IMG/VR virus record: IMGVR_UViG_3300045988_133230
Origin: a virus
Taxonomy: Duplodnaviria; Heunggongvirae; Uroviricota; Caudoviricetes
DNA: 60,892 bases
Reading direction: 5' to 3' (one strand)
The notes under the pieces were generated by a model, which ran no database searches, had not been told where the DNA came from, and saw only the letters and a program-made list of their open reading frames with translations. How positions within the stretch are numbered: position 1 is the first letter of the stretch; each line of letters begins with the position of its first letter. The position numbers and the translations under genes were made by a program. Shown piece after piece: positions 34-45,206 of this stretch.

Positions 34-333
34 GTGGACTGCCAGCCGATAGCGGCTGGTTTCAAGGGACTTTTACCACACGGTAAAAAGTCACGTCTCC
101 AGTGTGATGATGATGAAGGCATCATGATAGACGGTTGTGTGGCTCGGTTGCGAAAGTATAAACCAGAGGAATATGAGCTGATCATAGCTCACTTTGTTAT
201 TGGTATCTCATTACGCACTATTGCCAAGAAGAGAAGATGTTCAGATGGCACAATTAGGAAGGAATTGCAGACTGCCATGGGGTTTATCAGCGGTGTAATA
301 ATAACTATAAACCCCATTATGGTAGTTAATTAA
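34..333 (+). CDS. Q-type late antiterminator, C-terminal part (N-terminus unresolved)
   Basis: Translation parallels the C-terminal two-thirds of the Q protein at 43092-43475 (AAGFKGL, CxxC, CSDG motifs). In-frame TAA at 1-3 and GTG at 34, so upstream part is missing or frameshifted. Confidence 0.55.
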   Translation: MDCQPIAAGFKGLLPHGKKSRLQCDDDEGIMIDGCVARLRKYKPEEYELIIAHFVIGISLRTIAKKRRCSDGTIRKELQTAMGFISGVIITINPIMVVN

Positions 334-901
334 TGTGAATCCTATCACCAAGATAGTATAGTCCAAAAAATGTTGAAACAAGCATTTGCCATGTAAGGAA
401 TAAAAAGATAATGATATAGCACCAGTTTGCTATATCATTATTCAGTATGTTTATTAGTGGTGTGATAAAAGCGTTGAAAATCACTATGCATATGCTGAGG
501 GCAGTTAAAAATGAAAATAACATGCACAGAAATAATCTTCTGGTAAGTTTCTCTTGAGTGTCAACAATTCTACCATTTTCTTTTGTTCGTGTAATTTTAA
601 TAAAAGGAGTGCCATTAGTTCCTATCAGAGGGTAGTCAATTTGTTCTCTGTTGAAAGTGGCTATTGCTGCAAGAGCTGCTATATAAAAACCTGGCAGATT
701 TGATACAAATCCAGATATAGACTTAATAAAGCCGCCATCTTTTAGTAGGTCTGATGTAGGTATTTTAAATAAATAAAAGTAAAAAAAAGAAATCACAGCA
801 AGCCCGGCAGGTGCATAAAAATCGTATGCGCACTTACCACTAATTCCCTTAATGAAAAGGTAACCAAACGGTCTAAATAAATGTGAAAATATACTAATCA
901 T
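326..901 (-). CDS. hypothetical 191-aa integral membrane protein (about 4 predicted TM helices)
   Basis: Four hydrophobic stretches with a central charged loop; GAGG RBS 7 nt upstream of ATG, overlapping the stop of the 342-aa gene. Confidence 0.55.
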   Translation of the reverse strand: MISIFSHLFRPFGYLFIKGISGKCAYDFYAPAGLAVISFFYFYLFKIPTSDLLKDGGFIKSISGFVSNLPGFYIAALAAIATFNREQIDYPLIGTNGTPFIKITRTKENGRIVDTQEKLTRRLFLCMLFSFLTALSICIVIFNAFITPLINILNNDIANWCYIIIFLFLTWQMLVSTFFGLYYLGDRIHIN

Positions 902-908
902 ATTAGCC

Positions 909-1937
909 TCACATGACCTCGATAATCTTATTCACAAACTCCATGTTAATACTATCATAAGAATCCTTTAAGCGCGAAGAAAAACCATTTATTACACTCT
1001 TTTTGATAAATGTTTTTTCCAGCCCATCCAGCCTTACATTTGAAGTTTGAAGGTCAACTTGTCTTGTGAATCCTGTCTCTGGCTCTTTGAATTTTATTTT
1101 TATTAAGTCATAACCTCCATTTTTATCTTCTTTAAAGAAGTTTGAGACAGATTTTATCCATCCAAGGACATTGTTGGGGCCATGGTTTGGTACTAAGCGT
1201 AAAGTACTTTCTTTAGGAATAATAGCCGCGTTAACATCTGGCGCATTAATAGTTCTGTATTCATTCTTTACCAAAACGACATCAGAAAGTCCTTCTTTAT
1301 TTATTTTATTGAACAAATCTTCATCTAACTTTCCAGATATATCAAAGACTGGCTTGTATAATACTTTTATTTTTTTCTTTGTTAAACTTGATACTTCATT
1401 TGTTAAAGTGTTACATGAAAAGATATCTTCATTATCTTTGGCTACGTTAAAGAGAACTTTATTCAGGAAACCATTTATTTTTGCTGTGGAAACTCCTGGT
1501 ATTGGCATAAAACTCATGTCATACGTTCGCATATTTCCGTCTAGAGAAATAATCATATGAGAAGAAACTTCGTAACCTTCACCTTCCTCATGTTTTGGTG
1601 ATATTTCGGTGCGAACATCTGTATTAATGTTTTTTAATACAGTAGTGCTTCCATTTTTATCTACAGCATTAATTAAAAGACCAAGATGGCTGGGTTTTTT
1701 ATCGGCTCTGTTTGATAAGAATATTACATCTTGTAAAGTTAAAACTAAGTCTCCTTTTTCATAACTGTGCATCATTGCTTTACAATGTACTATTTTAGAA
1801 GCAAGTTCACGCATTGTTGGTACTGGGCAAACACAGTTCGATCTGATGCTATCATCAATTTTCTGTGTACGGTATTGTGTATCGATCGTAATAGTATGAT
1901 GAGTTATTACTCTACTGAATGCGTCCAGTGTAGCCAT
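909..1937 (-). CDS. hypothetical 342-aa soluble protein, first gene of cargo operon
   Basis: Long ORF in a visibly AT-rich block between Q and the late leader; no catalytic motif recognised; stop overlaps RBS of downstream gene. Confidence 0.6.
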   Translation of the reverse strand: MATLDAFSRVITHHTITIDTQYRTQKIDDSIRSNCVCPVPTMRELASKIVHCKAMMHSYEKGDLVLTLQDVIFLSNRADKKPSHLGLLINAVDKNGSTTVLKNINTDVRTEISPKHEEGEGYEVSSHMIISLDGNMRTYDMSFMPIPGVSTAKINGFLNKVLFNVAKDNEDIFSCNTLTNEVSSLTKKKIKVLYKPVFDISGKLDEDLFNKINKEGLSDVVLVKNEYRTINAPDVNAAIIPKESTLRLVPNHGPNNVLGWIKSVSNFFKEDKNGGYDLIKIKFKEPETGFTRQVDLQTSNVRLDGLEKTFIKKSVINGFSSRLKDSYDSINMEFVNKIIEVM

Positions 1938-1995
1938 TTCAAAATATCCGCTTCTTTGCTGTTTTTATATGGAGAAAGTTTACATAACCACTAAC

Positions 1996-2076
1996 GCGTA
2001 CGCAAAAACTATTGTATCGTGTTAAGAGTGGTTACTTCGCCACACAGCTTAAACCCGCCGTCGAGCGGGTTTTGTC
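1996..2076 (+). promoter_or_regulatory. late-operon leader (pR'/qut-like) with hairpin terminator 2051-2076
   Basis: About 80 bp near-identical to 45118-45196 upstream of the second lysis cassette; GC hairpin aaacccgc/gcgggttt followed by T-rich tract. Confidence 0.6.
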
Positions 2077-2224: not shown

Positions 2225-2551
2225 ATGCCTCATAACCCAAATACCTGGCTGGAGTTGGTCCAGAGCTGGTGGCGTGGAGACACACCACTGGGCGCAGTGA
2301 TTATGTCGATTGTTATGGCTGGATTGCGTATTGCCTATTTTGGCGGTGGTGGTGGGTGGAAGCGAAAAACGCTCGAGATTTTGCTCTGTGGTGCTCTGAC
2401 GCTGACTTTTGCATCCGCTCTTGAGTATGTCGGATGGCCTAAATCTCTTTCTGTTGCCATTGGTGGCGGTGTTGGGCTGATTGGTGTCGATGCAATTCGT
2501 GGGGCTGCAATGCGAGTAATCGGTAACAAATTTGGTAGCTCGAAGGAGTAA
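2225..2551 (+). CDS. S: holin, lambda S-like
   Basis: 108 aa, hydrophobic helices and charged C-terminus, directly upstream of endolysin. Confidence 0.8.
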   Translation: MPHNPNTWLELVQSWWRGDTPLGAVIMSIVMAGLRIAYFGGGGGWKRKTLEILLCGALTLTFASALEYVGWPKSLSVAIGGGVGLIGVDAIRGAAMRVIGNKFGSSKE

Positions 2552-2554
2552 TTT

Positions 2555-3031
2555 ATGCAGGCACTAAATTCCCAGCGTAAAGCTTTCCTCGATATGGTGG
2601 CATGGTCAGAAGGAACGGATAACGGACGGCAGAAAACCAGAAATCATGGTTATGACGTCATTGTAGGCGGAGAGCTATTTACTGATTACTCCGATCACCC
2701 TCGCAAACTTGTCACGCTAAACCCCAAACTCAAATCAACAGCCGCCGGACGTTATCAGCTTCTTTCACGCTGGTGGGATGCTTACCGTAAACAGCTTGGT
2801 TTGAAAAACTTCTCCCCCAAAAGCCAGGACGCAGTGGCATTGCAGCAGATTAAAGAGCGTGGCGCTTTACCGATGATTGATCGCGGTGATATCCGTCAGG
2901 CTATTGATCGTTGCAGCAATATCTGGGCGTCGTTACCTGGTGCAGGTTACGGTCAGTATGAACATAAAATCGGTGACCTGATTTCCCGGTTTAAAGAGGC
3001 TGGTGGGGTGGTAAATGAAGTTGAGCTATAA
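2555..3031 (+). CDS. R: endolysin, lambda R-like lytic transglycosylase
   Basis: 158 aa; N-terminal MxALNSQRKAFLDMxAWSEGTDNGRQKT matches lambda R from memory. Confidence 0.85.
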   Translation: MQALNSQRKAFLDMVAWSEGTDNGRQKTRNHGYDVIVGGELFTDYSDHPRKLVTLNPKLKSTAAGRYQLLSRWWDAYRKQLGLKNFSPKSQDAVALQQIKERGALPMIDRGDIRQAIDRCSNIWASLPGAGYGQYEHKIGDLISRFKEAGGVVNEVEL

Positions 3032-3602: not shown

Positions 3603-4091
3603 ATGATTGATTGGAATATGTGGTCTGCTATTGGGGCTTGTGGTTCGGCTATCGCGTCTTTGGGGGCGTTGTGTTATGCACGCAAGGCGTTAAACACATG
3701 GAATAGACAAGAGCAATTTAAAGTAAAGTTAGAGTTTAAAAGAGCTTTACTTGAGCTGGAGGATGCCTTTGAGGCAATGCCCGATAATTGGGATTCCACA
3801 CAATATAGAATAGCTAAAACAAGAGTTAAACAGCAGTATAATGCTGTTGTTCACCGAGTTGATGATGAAGCACAACTATATTTCATGAAAGAAAACCTTG
3901 AATCAGCATACCAGAATGCAGTGAGAGCATGGGTTTTATGTGAAGGGGGGATTAAAGATAAAAGTATACATGATGAATGGAGACAACTCAGGACTGATTA
4001 TAGTCAATATATTCTGACTGGTGGAAATAAAAAGTGCTACTTATCAAAAATAGAAAAAATATATTCTAGAATTGTAGTGTTCATAGATTGA
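3603..4091 (+). CDS. hypothetical 162-aa protein with N-terminal membrane anchor
   Basis: AT-rich ORF between lysis and packaging genes; one N-terminal hydrophobic helix then helical soluble region. Confidence 0.5.
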   Translation: MIDWNMWSAIGACGSAIASLGALCYARKALNTWNRQEQFKVKLEFKRALLELEDAFEAMPDNWDSTQYRIAKTRVKQQYNAVVHRVDDEAQLYFMKENLESAYQNAVRAWVLCEGGIKDKSIHDEWRQLRTDYSQYILTGGNKKCYLSKIEKIYSRIVVFID

Positions 4092-8915: not shown

Positions 8916-10120
8916 ATGGCGGTTGATATTAAAGATGTCGAACAGGTCGCGCAGGAGCTGCAGCAGAAGTTTGACGACTTCAAAGCAAAGAACGACAAGC
9001 GCGTGGATGCGATTGAGCAGGAAAAAGGCAAACTTGCCGGGCAGGTGGAAACCCTGAACGGGAAACTCAGCGAGCTGGAAAACCTCAAAAGCGATCTTGA
9101 AAAAGAGCTGCTTGAGCTGAAACGTCCGGCAGGTGGAGCGCAAAATAAACTGGCCACCGAGCATAAAGAGGCGTTTGTGGGCTTCCTGCGTAAAGGCCGT
9201 GAAGACGGTCTGCGCGATCTGGAGCGTAAGGCATTGCAGGTGGGCACCGATGAAGACGGTGGCTACGCCGTGCCGGAAGAACTGGATCGCAACATTCTTA
9301 ACCTGCTGAAAGATGAAGTGGTGATGCGTCAGGAAGCCACGGTGATCACCGTTGGCGGTTCCGACTACAAAAAACTGGTGAATCTGGGCGGTACGGCTTC
9401 CGGATGGGTGGGGGAAACGGATACGCGATCCCAGACTGCCACCTCCAGACTGGAGCTGATTGAACCTCTCATGGGGGAAATCTACGGCAACCCGCAGGCT
9501 ACCCAGAAAATGCTGGACGATGCCTTCTTCAACGTGGAGGCCTGGATCAACAGCGAGCTGGCAACCGAATTTGCCGAACAGGAAGAAATTGCCTTTACCT
9601 CAGGCGATGGTACCAAGAAGCCGAAGGGTTCCTGGCGTATGAATCCACCGATGAAACCGATAAGGTCCGGGCGTTCGGCAAACTTCAGCATATTGTATCC
9701 GGCGAAGCGACGGGGGTGACCGCAGACGCCATTATCAAACTGATTTACACGCTGCGAAAGGCACACCGCACCGGCGCGAAGTTCATGATGAACAACAACA
9801 GCCTGTTTGCCATCCGTTTGCTGAAAGACACCGAGGGTAACTATCTGTGGCGTCCGGGGCTGGAACTGGGGCAGCCGTCCTCTCTGGCGGGTTACGGTAT
9901 CGCTGAAAACGAACAGATGCCGGATATCGCCGCTGATGCGAAAGCCATTGCATTTGGTAACTTCAAACGGGGTTACACCATCGTTGACCGTATCGGCACC
10001 CGCATTCTGCGCGACCCGTACACCAATAAACCGTTTGTCGGTTTTTATACCACCAAGCGCACCGGCGGGATGCTGGTCGATTCGCAGGCCATCAAACTGC
10101 TGAAGATTGCAGCGGCGTAA
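8916..10120 (+). pseudogene. major capsid protein (HK97 fold) interrupted by a 1-bp frameshift near 9629-9631
   Basis: ORFs 8916-9719 and 9716-10120 form one capsid gene; reading continues in the +1 frame through ggtt/cctgg where ggtttcctgg would keep frame (KKPKGFLAYESTDETDK...). Confidence 0.7.
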
Positions 10121-10168
10121 TCACTCAGGGGCGCTGAACCGCGCCCCTGTTCTGAAGGGTGAAGAATC

Positions 10169-10369
10169 ATGATCCTGAAACAAGATCTGAAATGGTCACC
10201 GGACGGTATGCGTGTTGAGGTCATTCGGGCCGGTGAGTATGACGACGGGGCGCTTCCTGCCCGGGTGCAGGAGATTGCACTTCAGGCCGGGTTAGCAGAG
10301 CGCGGAACCAGTGCAAAAAGCAGTAAAGCGACAAAAGAGAAAAAAGCCACGACCAGTAAAGAGGGCTGA
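10169..10369 (+). CDS. hypothetical small head-module protein
   Basis: 66-aa ORF with RBS between capsid and connector genes. Confidence 0.4.
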   Translation: MILKQDLKWSPDGMRVEVIRAGEYDDGALPARVQEIALQAGLAERGTSAKSSKATKEKKATTSKEG

Positions 10370-10371
10370 GT

Positions 10372-10695
10372 ATGCTTCTGACAATGGAAGAGATTAAAGC
10401 CCAACTCCGGCTGGATGAGGATTTCGATGCTGATGACCGCCATCTGCAACTGCTGGCCTGTGCGGCGCAAAAGCGGACGGAAACGTATCTGAACCGGAAG
10501 CTCTATGCACCGGATGAAACCATTCCGGACAGCGACCCGGACGGACTACACCTGCCGGATGATATTCGTCTGGGGATGCTGATGCTTATCAGCCATTTTT
10601 ACGAAAACCGCTCGTCGGTTACGGAAGTGGAGAAACTCGACATGCCGCAGAGTTTTGGCTGGCTTGTTGGCCCGTACAGGTACTTTCCGCAATGA
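10372..10695 (+). CDS. head-tail connector (gp6-like)
   Basis: 107 aa; position and sequence character typical of head-tail connector proteins. Confidence 0.65.
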   Translation: MLLTMEEIKAQLRLDEDFDADDRHLQLLACAAQKRTETYLNRKLYAPDETIPDSDPDGLHLPDDIRLGMLMLISHFYENRSSVTEVEKLDMPQSFGWLVGPYRYFPQ

Positions 10696-24586: not shown

Positions 24587-24708
24587 TAATTCCCCATTGC
24601 TTCCCCGTTCAGAAAACAGGCAAAAAAACCAGCCGTAACAGGCTGGTTCTTCGAGGATTTTTGGTCGGCACGAGAGGATTTGAACCTCCGCCCCCCGACA
24701 CCCCATAG
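24587..24708. repeat. 122-bp direct repeat copy 1 (tRNA 3' fragment plus terminator)
   Basis: About 97 percent identical to 25757-25879 by manual alignment. Confidence 0.85.
24662..24708 (-). other. tRNA-Pro-like 3' fragment (att-type remnant, not a complete gene)
   Basis: Reverse complement reads ...GGAGGTTCAAATCCTCTCGTGCCGACCA: T-arm, G72, A73 discriminator, CCA; no D-arm or 5' acceptor strand present. Confidence 0.65.
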
Positions 24709-25756: not shown

Positions 25757-25879
25757 TAATTTCCCCATTGCTTCCCCGTTCAGAAAACAGGCAAAAAAAA
25801 CCAGCCGTAACAGGCTGGTTCTTCGAGGATTTTTGGTCAGCACGAGAGGATTTGAACCTCCGCCCCCGACACCCCATAG
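25757..25879. repeat. 122-bp direct repeat copy 2, includes tRNA-Pro-like 3' fragment 25834-25879
   Basis: See copy 1; four point or length differences. Confidence 0.85.
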
Positions 25880-43006: not shown

Positions 43007-43091
43007 AGTCAGAGATAACAATCGACTAATACTGTTTTGTTGATTTTTGCTTGTAATTGGCGTTCTGGCCTAATTTTTGTGGAGTAAGTTG

Positions 43092-43475
43092 ATGCGTGAT
43101 GTTCAGATGGTTCTTGAGCGTTGGGGGGCGTGGGCAGCTAATAATCATGAAGATGTGACCTGGTCGTCCATTGCTGCCGGTTTTAAGGGATTAATTCCTT
43201 CAAAAGTAAAATCTCGCCCGCAATGTTGTGACGATGACGCGATGATCATTTGCGGGTGCATGGCCCGTCTGAAAAAGAACAACAGCGATTTACACGATTT
43301 ATTAGTAGATTATTATGTATGTGGTATGACATTCATGTCACTGGCAAGTAAGCATTGCTGCTCGGATGGTTATATCGGGAAAAGGTTACAGAAGGCTGAG
43401 GGCATAATTGAAGGGATGTTAATGGCATTAGATATCCGGTTAGATATGGATATCGTTGCTAATAATTCTAATTGA
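43092..43475 (+). CDS. Q: late antiterminator Q (QuuD-like)
   Basis: 127 aa from ATG 43092 with GGAG RBS; Cys-rich zinc-binding region. Confidence 0.85.
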
Positions 43476-43663: not shown

Positions 43664-44746
43664 TTAGAACTGATAAACCAGACCTACAGCGACGATGTCG
43701 TCGGTATCAATACCAGCTGTTTTGGTAAACTTACTATCGTCAATTAAGTTGATTTTGTAATCAACAAAAGTGGACATGTTTTTATTAAAGTAGTAAGTAG
43801 CACCGACATCGACATACTTGACTAAGTCTCGGTCACCATGAACACCAAGGTCTTTACCTTTTGACTGAAGGTAAGCAACAGATGGGCGCAGACCGAAGTC
43901 AAACTGATATTGTGCTACTGCTTCAAAGTTTTGTGCTTTGTTTGCAATATGGTTATTACCAAAAACGGTCATATTCTGAGTTTCAGAATATGTGGTAGCC
44001 AGATAGATATTGTTCGCATCATATTTCAGGCCTGCAGCCCATACTTCCGCATTTTTGCCGGAGGCATTGAATTTGCTCTTACCATAGGCGACCTGACCGT
44101 CAGTGCGATCTGATTTAGCATAGGTTGCACCCACGCCGAATCCTTCATACTCATAAGTAGTGGAGAAACCGAAACCATCACCATTGGCTTCAGTTACGTC
44201 AGTGCGGTCATTTTTACCCTGATACTGAGCAGCAAAGTTCAGGCCATCGACCAGACCAAAGAAGTCGTTGTTACGATAAGTTGCAACACCAGTAGTGCGA
44301 CCAGTCATGAACACATCTGTTTGGGTCCAGGTATCACCACCGAATTCTGGCAGAACGTCAGTCCACGCACCGATGTCGTATGCTACACCGTAGTTACGGC
44401 CGTAATCGATTGAGCCGTAATCACCAAATTTCAGGCCTGCAAATGCAAGACGGGTTTTGTCTTTGGAAGAACCTTGAGATTCAGCACGGTTGCCTTTGAA
44501 TTCATATTCCCACTGACCGAAACCAGTCAGTTGATCGTTGATTTGGGTTTCACCTTTGAAGCCAAGACGGGCATAAGTAGTATCACCATCATCTGCATCA
44601 TTAGAGGAGAAGTAGTGCTTGGCATTAACTTTCCCGTATAGATCCAGCTTGTTACTGTCTTTATTATAAATTTCAGCTGCCTGAGCAGACATCGCCATCA
44701 GTACTGATGCAGCTACAGCAGAAATTGCCACTGTTAATTTTTTCAT
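43664..44746 (-). CDS. outer-membrane porin (OmpC/NmpC/Lc family)
   Basis: Signal peptide [23 protein letters not shown], beta-barrel porin sequence ending ...GLVYQF; start at ATG 44746. Confidence 0.85.
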
Positions 44747-45117
44747 TGTACGCCCTTTTTTTGAACTATTATTAAAAAATGATGTCACTGCGCGATAAAT
44801 ATTCATCTAATCAATGTGATTATTTCAAGATGTAAGTTTTAGTTTCTCATTTAATTTGTGAAGTAGATCTCTATTTTTATCTGAACCTTTTCTATCTAAT
44901 CCTATTCATGGCTCTTGTTTGAACGAAAATAAATCTATTAGCTAATTTATATTAATGGCACTTATTTATAAGCGCTCTATAATTCTTTAGCTTAATTTAA
45001 ACAAACTAAAAATAACATCGGAAATTATTCATTGGTTATTTGTTGAAGTTTTCTTATGTATTTGTGGTGGTGTTTTGAACACTCGGTGGCATTCTCACAA
45101 ATATCATTTAGTAGTTT

Positions 45118-45206
45118 ACGTACGTAAAAAATTGGTTATGCTGTTAAGAGTGGTTACTTCGTCACACAGCTTAAACCCGCCGTCGAGCGGGTTTTTCCAT
45201 TTTTTG
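45118..45206 (+). promoter_or_regulatory. late-operon leader (pR'/qut-like) with tR' hairpin 45173-45206
   Basis: Near-identical to 1996-2076; hairpin followed by T-run. Confidence 0.65.

Follow-up and report, generated by a model that had tools for sequence, protein, structure and literature searches.

What is a pair of coupled minus-strand genes doing in the gap between the antiterminator Q and the late leader of a phage? The window—by which we mean the whole stretch of 60,892 nucleotides that was analysed—poses this question in its first two thousand positions, where the carrier is an SfII-like lambdoid prophage of Escherichia coli and where the two genes, which we call A and B, fill the slot between Q and the conserved late leader. 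A first-pass annotation of this DNA had been reminded by the pair of the RexA/RexB exclusion genes and of Kiwa and had assumed that it was looking at something new. In other words, is this a defence module, is it of a kind already known, and does its place beside Q say anything about what it does?

The slot between Q and the late leader

Both genes lie on the minus strand, are translationally coupled and stand in DNA of about 32% GC (0.30–0.35 over about positions 150–1950, vs 0.47–0.59 in the flanks), and in these respects—reading frames, coordinates and base composition alike—the locus is as first described (Table 1). The same holds for the junction, at which the TGA stop of A (911–909) is overlapped by a GAGG Shine–Dalgarno sequence (910–907), followed by a 7-nt spacer and then by the ATG of B (901). 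Nearly all enterobacterial copies have this 7-nt spacing, and junctions in the family as a whole lie mostly between −4 and +16 nt. At the other end, B and Q converge, their stops overlapping by 8 nt; this Q matches the Q of Stx1a phages and is named "antiterminator Q family protein" in the annotation of E. coli genomes.

Table 1. Features of the locus, by position in the window
Feature	Position	Strand	Remarks
Q antiterminator gene, 3' part	34..333	+	left edge of the slot; convergent with B
Gene B (PDC-M53B, putative RexB-like effector)	326..901	-	191-aa ORF; predicted four-TM inner-membrane protein
Inverted repeat in the B coding sequence	408..441		14-bp perfect arms, 6-nt loop
A/B junction	902..911	-	read directly: ...ATG TGA GGC TAA T ATG
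Gene A (PDC-M53A, putative RexA-like sensor and DNA binder)	909..1937	-	342-aa soluble ORF
Candidate sigma-70 promoter of the operon	1977..2005	-	-35 TTGCGT (2005-2000), 17-nt spacer, -10 TAAACT (1982-1977)
Conserved late leader	about 1997..2076	+	right edge of the slot; intrinsic-terminator-like GC hairpin and T-run at 2051-2073
S holin	2225..2551		right flank, beyond the leader
R lysin	2555..3031		right flank, after the S holin

The edges of the slot are shared by other phages, and its contents are not. A copy of the late leader, 88% identical, stands at 45119–45195 in the second prophage of the window, the leader is also kept in SfII, and positions 1981–2073 are 94.6% identical in Stx2a phages. 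In the second prophage a homologous Q (43077..43475, plus strand) is followed by a minus-strand gene for a 380-aa porin of the OmpC/NmpC type (43664..44806), just as the first-pass annotation had said; in Stx2a phages the slot holds a two-gene module that is unrelated to ours and PADLOC-negative and yet has the same architecture, which is a new point.

How might the pair be transcribed? It had been argued that, being antisense, it is shielded from late transcription, an argument that is probably unnecessary, because the module precedes the conserved leader and terminator and would thus be outside the late transcript if, as lambdoid organisation makes most likely, that block holds the late promoter. 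A scan upstream of A for a consensus promoter gave no site matching at 9 or more of 12 positions and none that was convincing. In nine copies whose A proteins are 52–100% identical, the TTGCGT of the candidate promoter and the T, A and T of its TAnnnT are nevertheless invariant; this phylogenetic footprint, in a block that doubles as the plus-strand late leader, suggests that the operon promoter may lie here, and we infer that the pair is expressed in the lysogen. The coding sequence of B also contains an inverted repeat longer than chance would give (0 of 500 shuffles exceeded 11 bp), which is retained in two other loci, L016 and L017, by way of a compensatory change.

Two proteins and one widespread family

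Searches with the sequences of A and B in Pfam, NCBIfam and the PDB returned no matches, and PHROGs returned families of unknown function only (phrog_8257 for B). PADLOC, which had been proposed as a check on the locus, was more generous. Protein A matches PDC-M53A (PDLC04696, E=2e-31), its residues 8–340 falling on profile positions 5–316 of 320, and is matched by three further PDC-M53A HMMs as well; protein B matches PDC-M53B (PDLC04699, E=1.7e-54), its residues 4–190 falling on positions 2–186 of 188. Both matches are thus full length, and the two genes are adjacent and co-oriented. PDC-M53 entered PADLOC-DB v2 in 2023 and is itself a computational candidate without a description; this entry, together with a paper of 2026 on Pseudomonas putida to which we turn below, takes away the novelty that had been assumed for the pair.

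No segment of protein A is hydrophobic (maximum KD19 0.7). RefSeq/PGAP annotates it as a protein of 301 aa, 41 N-terminal residues shorter than ours; we hold the 342-aa form to be correct because those extra residues are strongly conserved, with M1, A6, R9, T12, H13, H14, D19 and R23 invariant in 28 sequences. The best fold matches of the A model are RdgC and RexA, nothing in a Foldseek search of the PDB reaching significance, and on the strength of the model we assign A a predicted fold of the RexA/RdgC class.

The four hydrophobic helices that had been read from the sequence of B return as four long helices (H23–44, H58–82, H121–153 and H156–187) in its AlphaFold (AF2) model, which has a pLDDT of 90 and a pTM of 0.85. 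A four-TM inner-membrane protein encoded by the second gene is a feature of RexAB-type systems, and B is modelled as just such a protein. Its central loop (residues 84–122, charges +8/−5) is rich in K and R, includes a beta-hairpin in the model and ends in the invariant R121 and R122; by the positive-inside rule, we infer a topology with both termini inside and the central loop in the cytoplasm. In a Foldseek search of BFVD the B model found nothing significant, RexB being absent from the list, and the best near-full-length match was a 165-aa protein of phage Sbash (TM 0.41/0.45, E=1.5).

The pair belongs to a family that is spread across the gamma-, beta- and alpha-proteobacteria, in which A precedes B on the same strand in every one of 111 loci and in which all 80 of 80 diverse A proteins match PDC-M53A. 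Many residues are invariant. B has changed less than A in 74 of 78 distinct pairs, which fits a fast-evolving sensor coupled to a conserved effector. We sought a conserved third gene among the loci and found none; the recurrent upstream neighbours are CI-type repressors (HTH_3 plus Peptidase_S24, on the same strand, in 11 loci) or restriction–modification enzymes, and loci other than those 11 adjoin Type ISP or Type I restriction–modification enzymes, MADS or AbiEii-like genes.

Likeness to RexABpp, to lambda Rex and to Kiwa

What gives this anonymous family a function is, we think, a member studied by experiment. The genes PP_5643 and PP_5644 of prophage P1 in P. putida form RexABpp, a validated RexAB-type anti-phage system that needs both genes and acts against heterologous phages; RexApp binds DNA, its overexpression leads to membrane permeabilisation and growth arrest that depend on RexBpp, and the toxicity lies with RexBpp, the effector in the membrane (Rosendahl et al., Sci Rep 2026, PMC12894663). 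The same authors detected no interaction between RexApp and RexBpp by BACTH in P. putida, and they counted "only five" RexAB-like systems (PMC12894663). RexApp has been modelled as a clamp and RexBpp as a pentamer.

We derived the termini of both proteins from the primers in Supplementary Table 2 of PMC12894663 and compared them with the PDC-M53 pair of Pseudomonas sp. 286 (L091). L091 A begins with all 8 residues of the RexApp N-terminus, MHRTATFV, and L091 B ends with all 10 of the RexBpp C-terminus, LYYLGYKLQE*; at the N-terminus RexBpp reads MLIGQLANP and L091 B MLISQLTKP. The A/B spacer is 2 nt in both pairs, RexApp-His has 37.5 kDa where L091 A with a His6 tag would have 37,534 Da, and of the 7 residues reported for RexBpp 5 agree with L091 numbering. 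Of 118 B proteins, 78 carry the C-terminal motif, which none of 6382 other ORFs has. From these termini, sizes and spacings of PP_5643/PP_5644 we conclude that, by our analysis, PDC-M53 and RexABpp are the same family, a new point; and since the primer-derived termini match a Pseudomonas PDC-M53 pair, the family includes an experimentally validated RexAB-type system. A literature search for "PDC-M53" found no paper using the term, one for the protein accessions of E. coli and SfII brought up no study of function, and the identity of PDC-M53 with RexABpp is not previously stated in the searchable literature.

How near does the window pair stand to this relative? Over its full length, protein B shares 40% identity with L091 B (E=6e-30), and it has near its C-terminus the invariant GLYYLG motif that it shares with RexBpp, so that, indirectly, by way of L091 B, B appears to be homologous to RexBpp. 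The route from A to RexApp is also indirect and is weaker: window A is 20% identical to L091 A (pairwise E=0.016), and a profile built from enterobacterial A proteins only does not match L091 A; the same profile does match two Pseudomonas A proteins of the MHRTATFY type, L071 (E=2e-13) and P0279 (E=3.6e-16), and L091 A itself matches the family HMM (E=2e-73). Through L091 A and the family profiles, A too would then be a homologue of RexApp. Both pairs are borne by prophages, and in both the soluble gene is followed by the four-TM gene; they differ in that RexABpp lies downstream of a CI-type repressor and the window pair between Q and the late leader, and in that a RexApp-like A is only about 20% identical to window A.

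In sequence, we found no likeness to lambda itself. Pfam RexA (PF15969) matches neither A nor any of 80 family members, hhalign of the A family with RexA gives probabilities of 0.1–0.8%, a RexA HMM run against 244 A-family sequences was negative, and hhalign of the B family gives 0.6% with lambda RexB and 0.2% with an 18-sequence RexB family. We discount these negative tests as evidence against homology, because the PP_5643-like subfamily, which in published HHpred work matches RexA at 98%, is also negative against our own RexA profile. By sequence the window pair is not a member of the lambda RexA or RexB families, profile tests of this kind having low power for distant homology. In organisation there is a resemblance: a two-gene operon carried by a prophage, the soluble protein first and the four-TM protein second, and, in the 11 PDC-M53 loci with a CI-type repressor upstream, an arrangement that recalls lambda cI-rexA-rexB. 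Window A and B are larger than their lambda counterparts (342 vs 279 aa for RexA, 191 vs 144 aa for RexB), B differs from RexB in the beta-hairpin of a longer central loop, and the window copy lies in the Q-to-leader slot, away from the immunity region and the repressor that RexAB-type genes adjoin or are co-transcribed with. Adjacency to a repressor is not universal among accepted Rex-like systems, the Rex-like genes of Sbash having been displaced from theirs.

The actinophage systems, Sbash gp30/gp31 and CarolAnn gp44/gp43, also join a soluble protein to a four-TM one, for which a sensor-activated depolarisation of the membrane has been proposed, and the central cytoplasmic loop of their membrane protein is functionally important; that of window B has the invariant R121/R122. 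They occur in other phyla and have no shown sequence relationship to the window pair, and Sbash gp30 carries the RexA-type DUF4747 motif that window A lacks.

Could the pair be Kiwa-like instead, that is, a KwaA-type membrane sensor with a KwaB-type DNA-binding effector that blocks replication and leaves the membrane undamaged? At a glance it could, since Kiwa too combines a four-TM protein (about 190 aa here) with a partner that is soluble, of similar size (about 320–340 aa in this family) and likely to bind DNA. The likeness is superficial. Neither the window proteins nor 80 family members match PADLOC KwaA or KwaB or contain DUF4868, which in KwaB accompanies a Rossmann-like domain; the membrane gene comes first in Kiwa and the soluble gene in 111 of 111 PDC-M53 loci; no Kiwa chain appears among the top 60 fold matches of A, of which RdgC and RexA are the nearest; and the roles of sensor and effector are assigned the other way, the membrane protein being the toxic effector in the validated member. 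We have rejected this identity, to which we give next to no credence, and the Kiwa alternative of the first-pass annotation falls with it.

Defence, phage life cycle or passenger?

The other half of that early impression has fared much better. Full-length PDC-M53A and PDC-M53B matches, a predicted RexA/RdgC-class fold for A, unbroken A-then-B coupling and a validated relative in the family all point the same way, and because the P. putida member has been shown to be a RexAB-type anti-phage system, we read the window module as a defence module of essentially known kind: it is, as judged from sequence, a new enterobacterial member of the RexAB-type family. We consider it probable that the locus is an operon for two-component defence by abortive infection or growth arrest, of the PDC-M53/RexABpp family, and, by analogy, expect the E. 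coli copy to work as the P. putida member does. Protein A, soluble and of RexA/RdgC fold, would be a non-specific DNA-binding clamp, probably dimeric, that registers infection by another phage, with intermediates of replication or recombination as a possible cue. Once activated, A would trigger B, a four-TM protein of the inner membrane that is probably oligomeric, and B would then impair the integrity or potential of the membrane, with the result that growth stops and the infection is aborted. The tight translational coupling would set the stoichiometry of A to B.

Is the pair perhaps a mere passenger, decaying or functionally unrelated (a membrane protein with its private regulator, for example), that rides along in a permissive slot? 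Few E. coli genomes carry it (15 of 5426 complete ones), A is frameshifted in L036 and L037, B stands without a recognisable A in three loci, and the promoter scan found no strong consensus site. Yet in all 15 of those E. coli genomes both ORFs are intact, at 99.4% DNA identity or more; the coupled unit has been kept across three proteobacterial classes with its many invariant residues; and one family member has a demonstrated defence phenotype. We think a passenger of this sort quite improbable.

A more serious rival accepts the family and moves the job: the main role of the module could be in the life cycle of its own prophage, in the late switch, in decisions between lysis and lysogeny, or in addiction and stabilisation. 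One Q family adjoins B in 38 of 40 enterobacterial loci, also where A is down to 52% identity, so that the module is a fixed partner of this Q family among enterobacterial phages, a new point; in a comparison with SfV and SfI, Q, B and A set SfII apart as a block; the candidate promoter and the late leader stand back-to-back; lambda RexA biases the bistable cI/Cro switch independently of RexB; and deletions in P. putida P1 provoke loss of the prophage. Against all this, phages of the same Q family hold unrelated genes in the slot—the porin of the second prophage, the pair of Stx2a phages—so that the slot behaves as a hotspot rather than as one unit of function with Q; beyond Enterobacterales the module is found with no Q at all, next to restriction–modification enzymes or CI repressors; and the P. 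putida member defends against phages other than its own. We regard a main role in the life cycle as unlikely. The word "cargo," which the first-pass annotation had used, does scant justice to how stably the module stands beside one Q family.

One may also try to have everything at once. PDC-M53/RexABpp would then be a very large branch of Rex (more than 300 clusters at 50% identity in Proteobacteria, vs five systems), its placement in the enterobacterial Q slot would reflect functional coupling, and the gap between Q and the leader would be a dedicated hotspot for interchangeable modules of a soluble sensor and a four-TM effector, the Stx2a pair included. Under the coupling part, the RexA-like A would also act on the late switch of the phage that carries it, or else Q or late-promoter activity would switch the module. 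As a whole, we hold this to be doubtful.

If the copy in E. coli and Shigella does work as its P. putida relative does, then, on our preferred reading of a RexAB-type defence operon, SfII-type prophages confer a Rex-like abortive or growth-arrest defence, which would be relevant for phage therapy and for phage typing of E. coli and of Shigella flexneri 2a. Through the equation of PDC-M53 with RexABpp, hundreds of "hypothetical" pairs of genes in the Proteobacteria would acquire a function, and Rex-type systems would be far commoner than the five on record. K-12 genetics and large panels of coliphages are at hand for the E. coli copy, which would be a tractable model in which one might address a question that is 70 years old: what do RexA-like sensors detect, and how do RexB-like effectors open?

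Two genes in a phage slot

The first-pass annotation described two coupled minus-strand genes in the slot between an antiterminator Q gene and the late leader, and we found both exactly there: A, encoding a soluble protein, and B, encoding one with four transmembrane helices. Its account of the slot was accurate as well, because the second prophage has a homologous Q, a minus-strand porin (without a PADLOC match) and a similar leader. B's GAGG Shine-Dalgarno overlaps A's TGA stop and stands 7 nt from B's ATG; GC content is 30-35% over about 150-1950 and 47-59% nearby; and right of the leader come the S holin, R lysin and Rz genes, in that order. How long is A? RefSeq/PGAP starts it too late (301 aa, WP_227898986.1; also at 9610-10515 of comparative locus L002), and since the 41 N-terminal residues thus omitted are among the best conserved of the A family, 342 aa is correct.

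Module and equivalent slots in the window
Feature	Coordinates	Strand	Remarks
Antiterminator Q gene, 3' end	34..333	+	Left of B, convergent; stop overlap with B 8 nt
B	326..901	-	191-aa ORF
A	909..1937	-	342-aa ORF
Conserved leader	1997-2073	+	GC hairpin and T-run inside; right of module
Second prophage Q, homologous	43077..43475	+	
Second prophage porin	43664..44806	-	OmpC/NmpC-type, 380 aa, signal peptide; in equivalent Q-to-leader slot
Second prophage leader	45119-45195		88% identical to first prophage's leader

Other features of the window deserve a word. Inside B, about 75 nt past the convergent Q stop, lies a perfect 14-bp inverted repeat with a 6-nt loop (408-441; none of 500 shuffles exceeded 11 bp). 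It might serve as an mRNA element or, hidden in the gene, terminate rightward Q transcription. Loci L016 and L017 retain it through a compensatory change (T-A to C-G), L019-L021 have another hairpin, of 13 bp and some 64 nt off (again with compensatory changes), and the copy in Shigella phage SfII has no such hairpin. A 162-aa plus-strand ORF with a hydrophobic N-terminus (3603-4091, 37-40% GC, no PADLOC match), between the Rz/Rz1 spanin and HNH/terminase genes, may be another accessory gene. Finally, a 74-nt direct repeat (24622-24695 and 25794-25867; 99% identical, 1172 nt apart), which takes in a hairpin of terminator type and a stretch like the 3' end of a tRNA, could mark an attachment-site or tRNA duplication at a prophage boundary.

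Probable kinship with RexABpp of Pseudomonas putida

What, then, are A and B? Neither has a match in Pfam, NCBIfam or PDB sequences, and PHROGs places both in families of unknown function, but in PADLOC-DB both match, at full length, the candidate defence system PDC-M53 (A, E=2e-31; B, E=1.7e-54). A word-indexed search gave 34 clusters for A, from Enterobacterales-type hosts only and 340-342 aa long, and a broader 609 matches for B, spread over Vibrio, Shewanella, Halomonas, and beta- and alpha-proteobacteria; an exhaustive profile search raised A to 311 clusters (50% identity), nearly all of 315-335 aa and matched at full length. All 80 sampled A-family members match PDC-M53A, and none matches the RexA, RdgC or DUF4868 models. 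H127 is the sole residue of A invariant across the family, with R9, L88, G121, S125 and D234 at least 90% conserved and a motif GEGxxxSxH. Homologs of B also occur in two 13-15 kb Vibrio cyclitrophicus "PE001" elements, Salmonella phage F1055 and Moraxella phage Mcat23 (PQ189345.1, PQ189338.1, OP745618.1, KR093647.1).

RexABpp is the pair PP_5643/PP_5644 of P. putida prophage P1 (Rosendahl et al., Sci Rep 2026, PMC12894663); its defence needs both genes, and when RexApp is overexpressed, growth stops and the membrane becomes permeable, both effects depending on RexBpp (PMC12894663). That paper makes no mention of PADLOC. We translated the gene-specific parts of its primers (Supplementary Table 2, PMC12894663) and set them beside L091, the PDC-M53 pair of Pseudomonas sp. 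286; RexABpp was compared through primer-derived termini, sizes and spacer.

RexABpp ends from primers beside L091
Element	Primers	L091	Agreement
RexApp N-terminus	MHRTATFV	MHRTATFVDIK...	8/8 identical
RexApp C-terminus	...RLMV*	...FALMV	
RexBpp N-terminus	MLIGQLANP	MLISQLTKP	
RexBpp C-terminus	LYYLGYKLQE*	GLYYLGYKLQE*	10/10 identical
A stop to B start	2 nt	2 nt	

Among 118 B proteins, 78 carry the motif seen at RexBpp's C-terminus; among 6382 other ORFs, none does. The published sizes (RexApp-His of 37.5 kDa; RexBpp mutations reaching Y181; PMC12894663) fit the Pseudomonas PDC-M53 proteins (330 and 188 aa), not lambda RexA/RexB. Judged by termini, sizes and spacer, RexABpp very probably belongs to the PDC-M53 family. 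The window's B is 40% identical to that of L091 (E=6e-30) and its A 20% identical, and a profile built only from enterobacterial A proteins matches Pseudomonas proteins of MHRTATFY type, close relatives of the L091 A protein (E=2e-13 to 3.6e-16).

Predicted folds and the lambda Rex proteins

The predicted structure of A finds its fold matches in E. coli RdgC (7.8) and lambda RexA (8TWQ; 7.7), followed by CHL4 (6.8), CENP-N (6.7, 6.3 and 6.2) and IML3 (5.7). B is modelled confidently (pLDDT 90, pTM 0.85) as four long helices (23-44, 58-82, 121-153 and 156-187) with a beta-hairpin in a K/R-rich central loop, at the end of which R121 and R122 are invariant; the positive-inside rule suggests an N-in/C-in topology. 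The sole near-full-length viral structural match of the B model is BFVD A0A0A7RXT6 (TM 0.41/0.45 over 181 columns, E-value 1.5), a 165-aa protein of Mycobacterium phage Sbash; that phage carries a validated Rex-like pair, gp30/gp31, and the entry could be gp31.

Is the pair, in other words, lambda Rex under another name? Profile comparison gave probabilities of only 0.1-0.8% for the A family against RexA and 0.2-0.6% for the B family against RexB, and a RexA HMM found none of 244 A-family sequences. The RexA profile test was also negative for the Pseudomonas subfamily that includes PP_5643, a published HHpred 98% match to RexA (PMC12894663); these tests lack power because the RexA profile was narrow and no secondary-structure term was used. 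As far as such tests reach, the pair would lie outside the lambda RexA/RexB sequence families, with room left for distant homology. The layout offers a likeness: lambda's cI-rexA-rexB order is matched by 11 family loci of non-enterobacterial hosts, in which a co-oriented CI-type repressor gene (HTH_3 + Peptidase_S24) precedes the pair.

The pair across genomes and its possible workings

A precedes B on the same strand in all 111 loci with both genes detectable, mostly with gaps of -4 to +16 nt, and within these the pairing is seen in 73 of the 80 genomes that were anchored only by B. Of the seven remaining, "B-only" cases, four sit at contig edges and three have no recognisable A. Those three (L059, a Bathymodiolus symbiont; L062, Marinobacterium; L088, Pinirhizobacter) may reflect a swapped partner or decay; A's position holds an unrelated 330-aa ORF in L059 and ORFs of 140 and 211 aa in L062. 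In 74 of 78 distinct pairs, B has diverged less than A (median identity 37% versus 21% in distant pairs, 64% versus 58% in enterics).

In 101 of 101 loci the GC content of the module falls below that of its flanks, by 13.7 points on average; this holds even where the host has 60-69% GC (0.44 versus 0.63 in Oceanicaulis). The cause could be recent horizontal transfer everywhere, a compositional constraint or selection for xenogeneic silencing of a toxic module. The same Q family adjoins it in 38 of 40 enterobacterial-phage loci, down to 52% A identity, and Q is absent beside it in non-enterobacterial hosts. The SfII copy, in the same slot, is 58% (A) and 64% (B) identical to the window's; the SfII genome paper calls Q, SfII_49 and SfII_50 jointly unique to that phage. 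Alpha-proteobacterial copies follow a Type ISP restriction enzyme at a distance of 18-19 nt, Marinobacter copies adjoin HsdR, and further neighbours are Type I R-M subunits, MADS, AbiEii-like ATPases, ArdC and UmuCD. Among 5426 complete E. coli genomes, 15 carry the window's version (at least 99.4% DNA identity), always annotated hypothetical.

Stx2a-converting phages 1447 and WGPS2, which share the Q family and late leader, hold between Q and leader a minus-strand pair of like architecture but unrelated sequence (L147, AP012536.1 13770-15333). Its first gene encodes a soluble protein of 343 aa and its second, overlapping the first by 8 nt, one of 179 aa with some four hydrophobic segments; GC content is 38% in the pair and 53% in the flank. 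The pair has no PADLOC, Pfam or PDB match, is not similar to A, B or RexA, and may be a further defence pair, Rex-like or analogous, in O157:H7 Stx phages.

A consensus promoter scan upstream of A found no strong site. On the minus strand, however, nine copies (52-100% A identity) all keep TTGCGT (2005-2000) and, after a 17-nt spacer, TAnnnT (1982-1977), a candidate promoter that would stand back-to-back with the late leader; the footprint is ambiguous, because the block is also kept as leader in phages without the module. On the plus strand the leader and its terminator come after the module, and phage 1447 has Q stop, two-gene slot and leader in identical arrangement. Late transcription thus probably begins past the module, so the earlier argument that antisense placement insulates the pair from it is unneeded.

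Our literature search found no statement that PDC-M53 is RexABpp, nor any on the family's breadth, its fixed Q-family association or the sequence-unrelated module of like architecture in the Stx2a slot. The system itself is already known, from its PADLOC listing (2023) and a validated family member (2026), and the first-pass reading of the pair as Rex-like was right. By homology, A would be a RexA-like, probably dimeric DNA-binding sensor, and B a membrane effector that, triggered by A, would compromise membrane integrity, arrest growth and abort infection; translational coupling would fix the ratio of A to B, a quantity of importance in Rex systems (PMC12894663). Our analysis shows the fold class, gene anatomy, family membership, pairing and context, and the phenotypes come from published work on the P. 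putida member; we infer that the E. coli copy behaves likewise, and we also infer the trigger, B's topology, the promoter and expression in the lysogen. The enterobacterial copy is a new, putatively defensive member of an already known kind of system.
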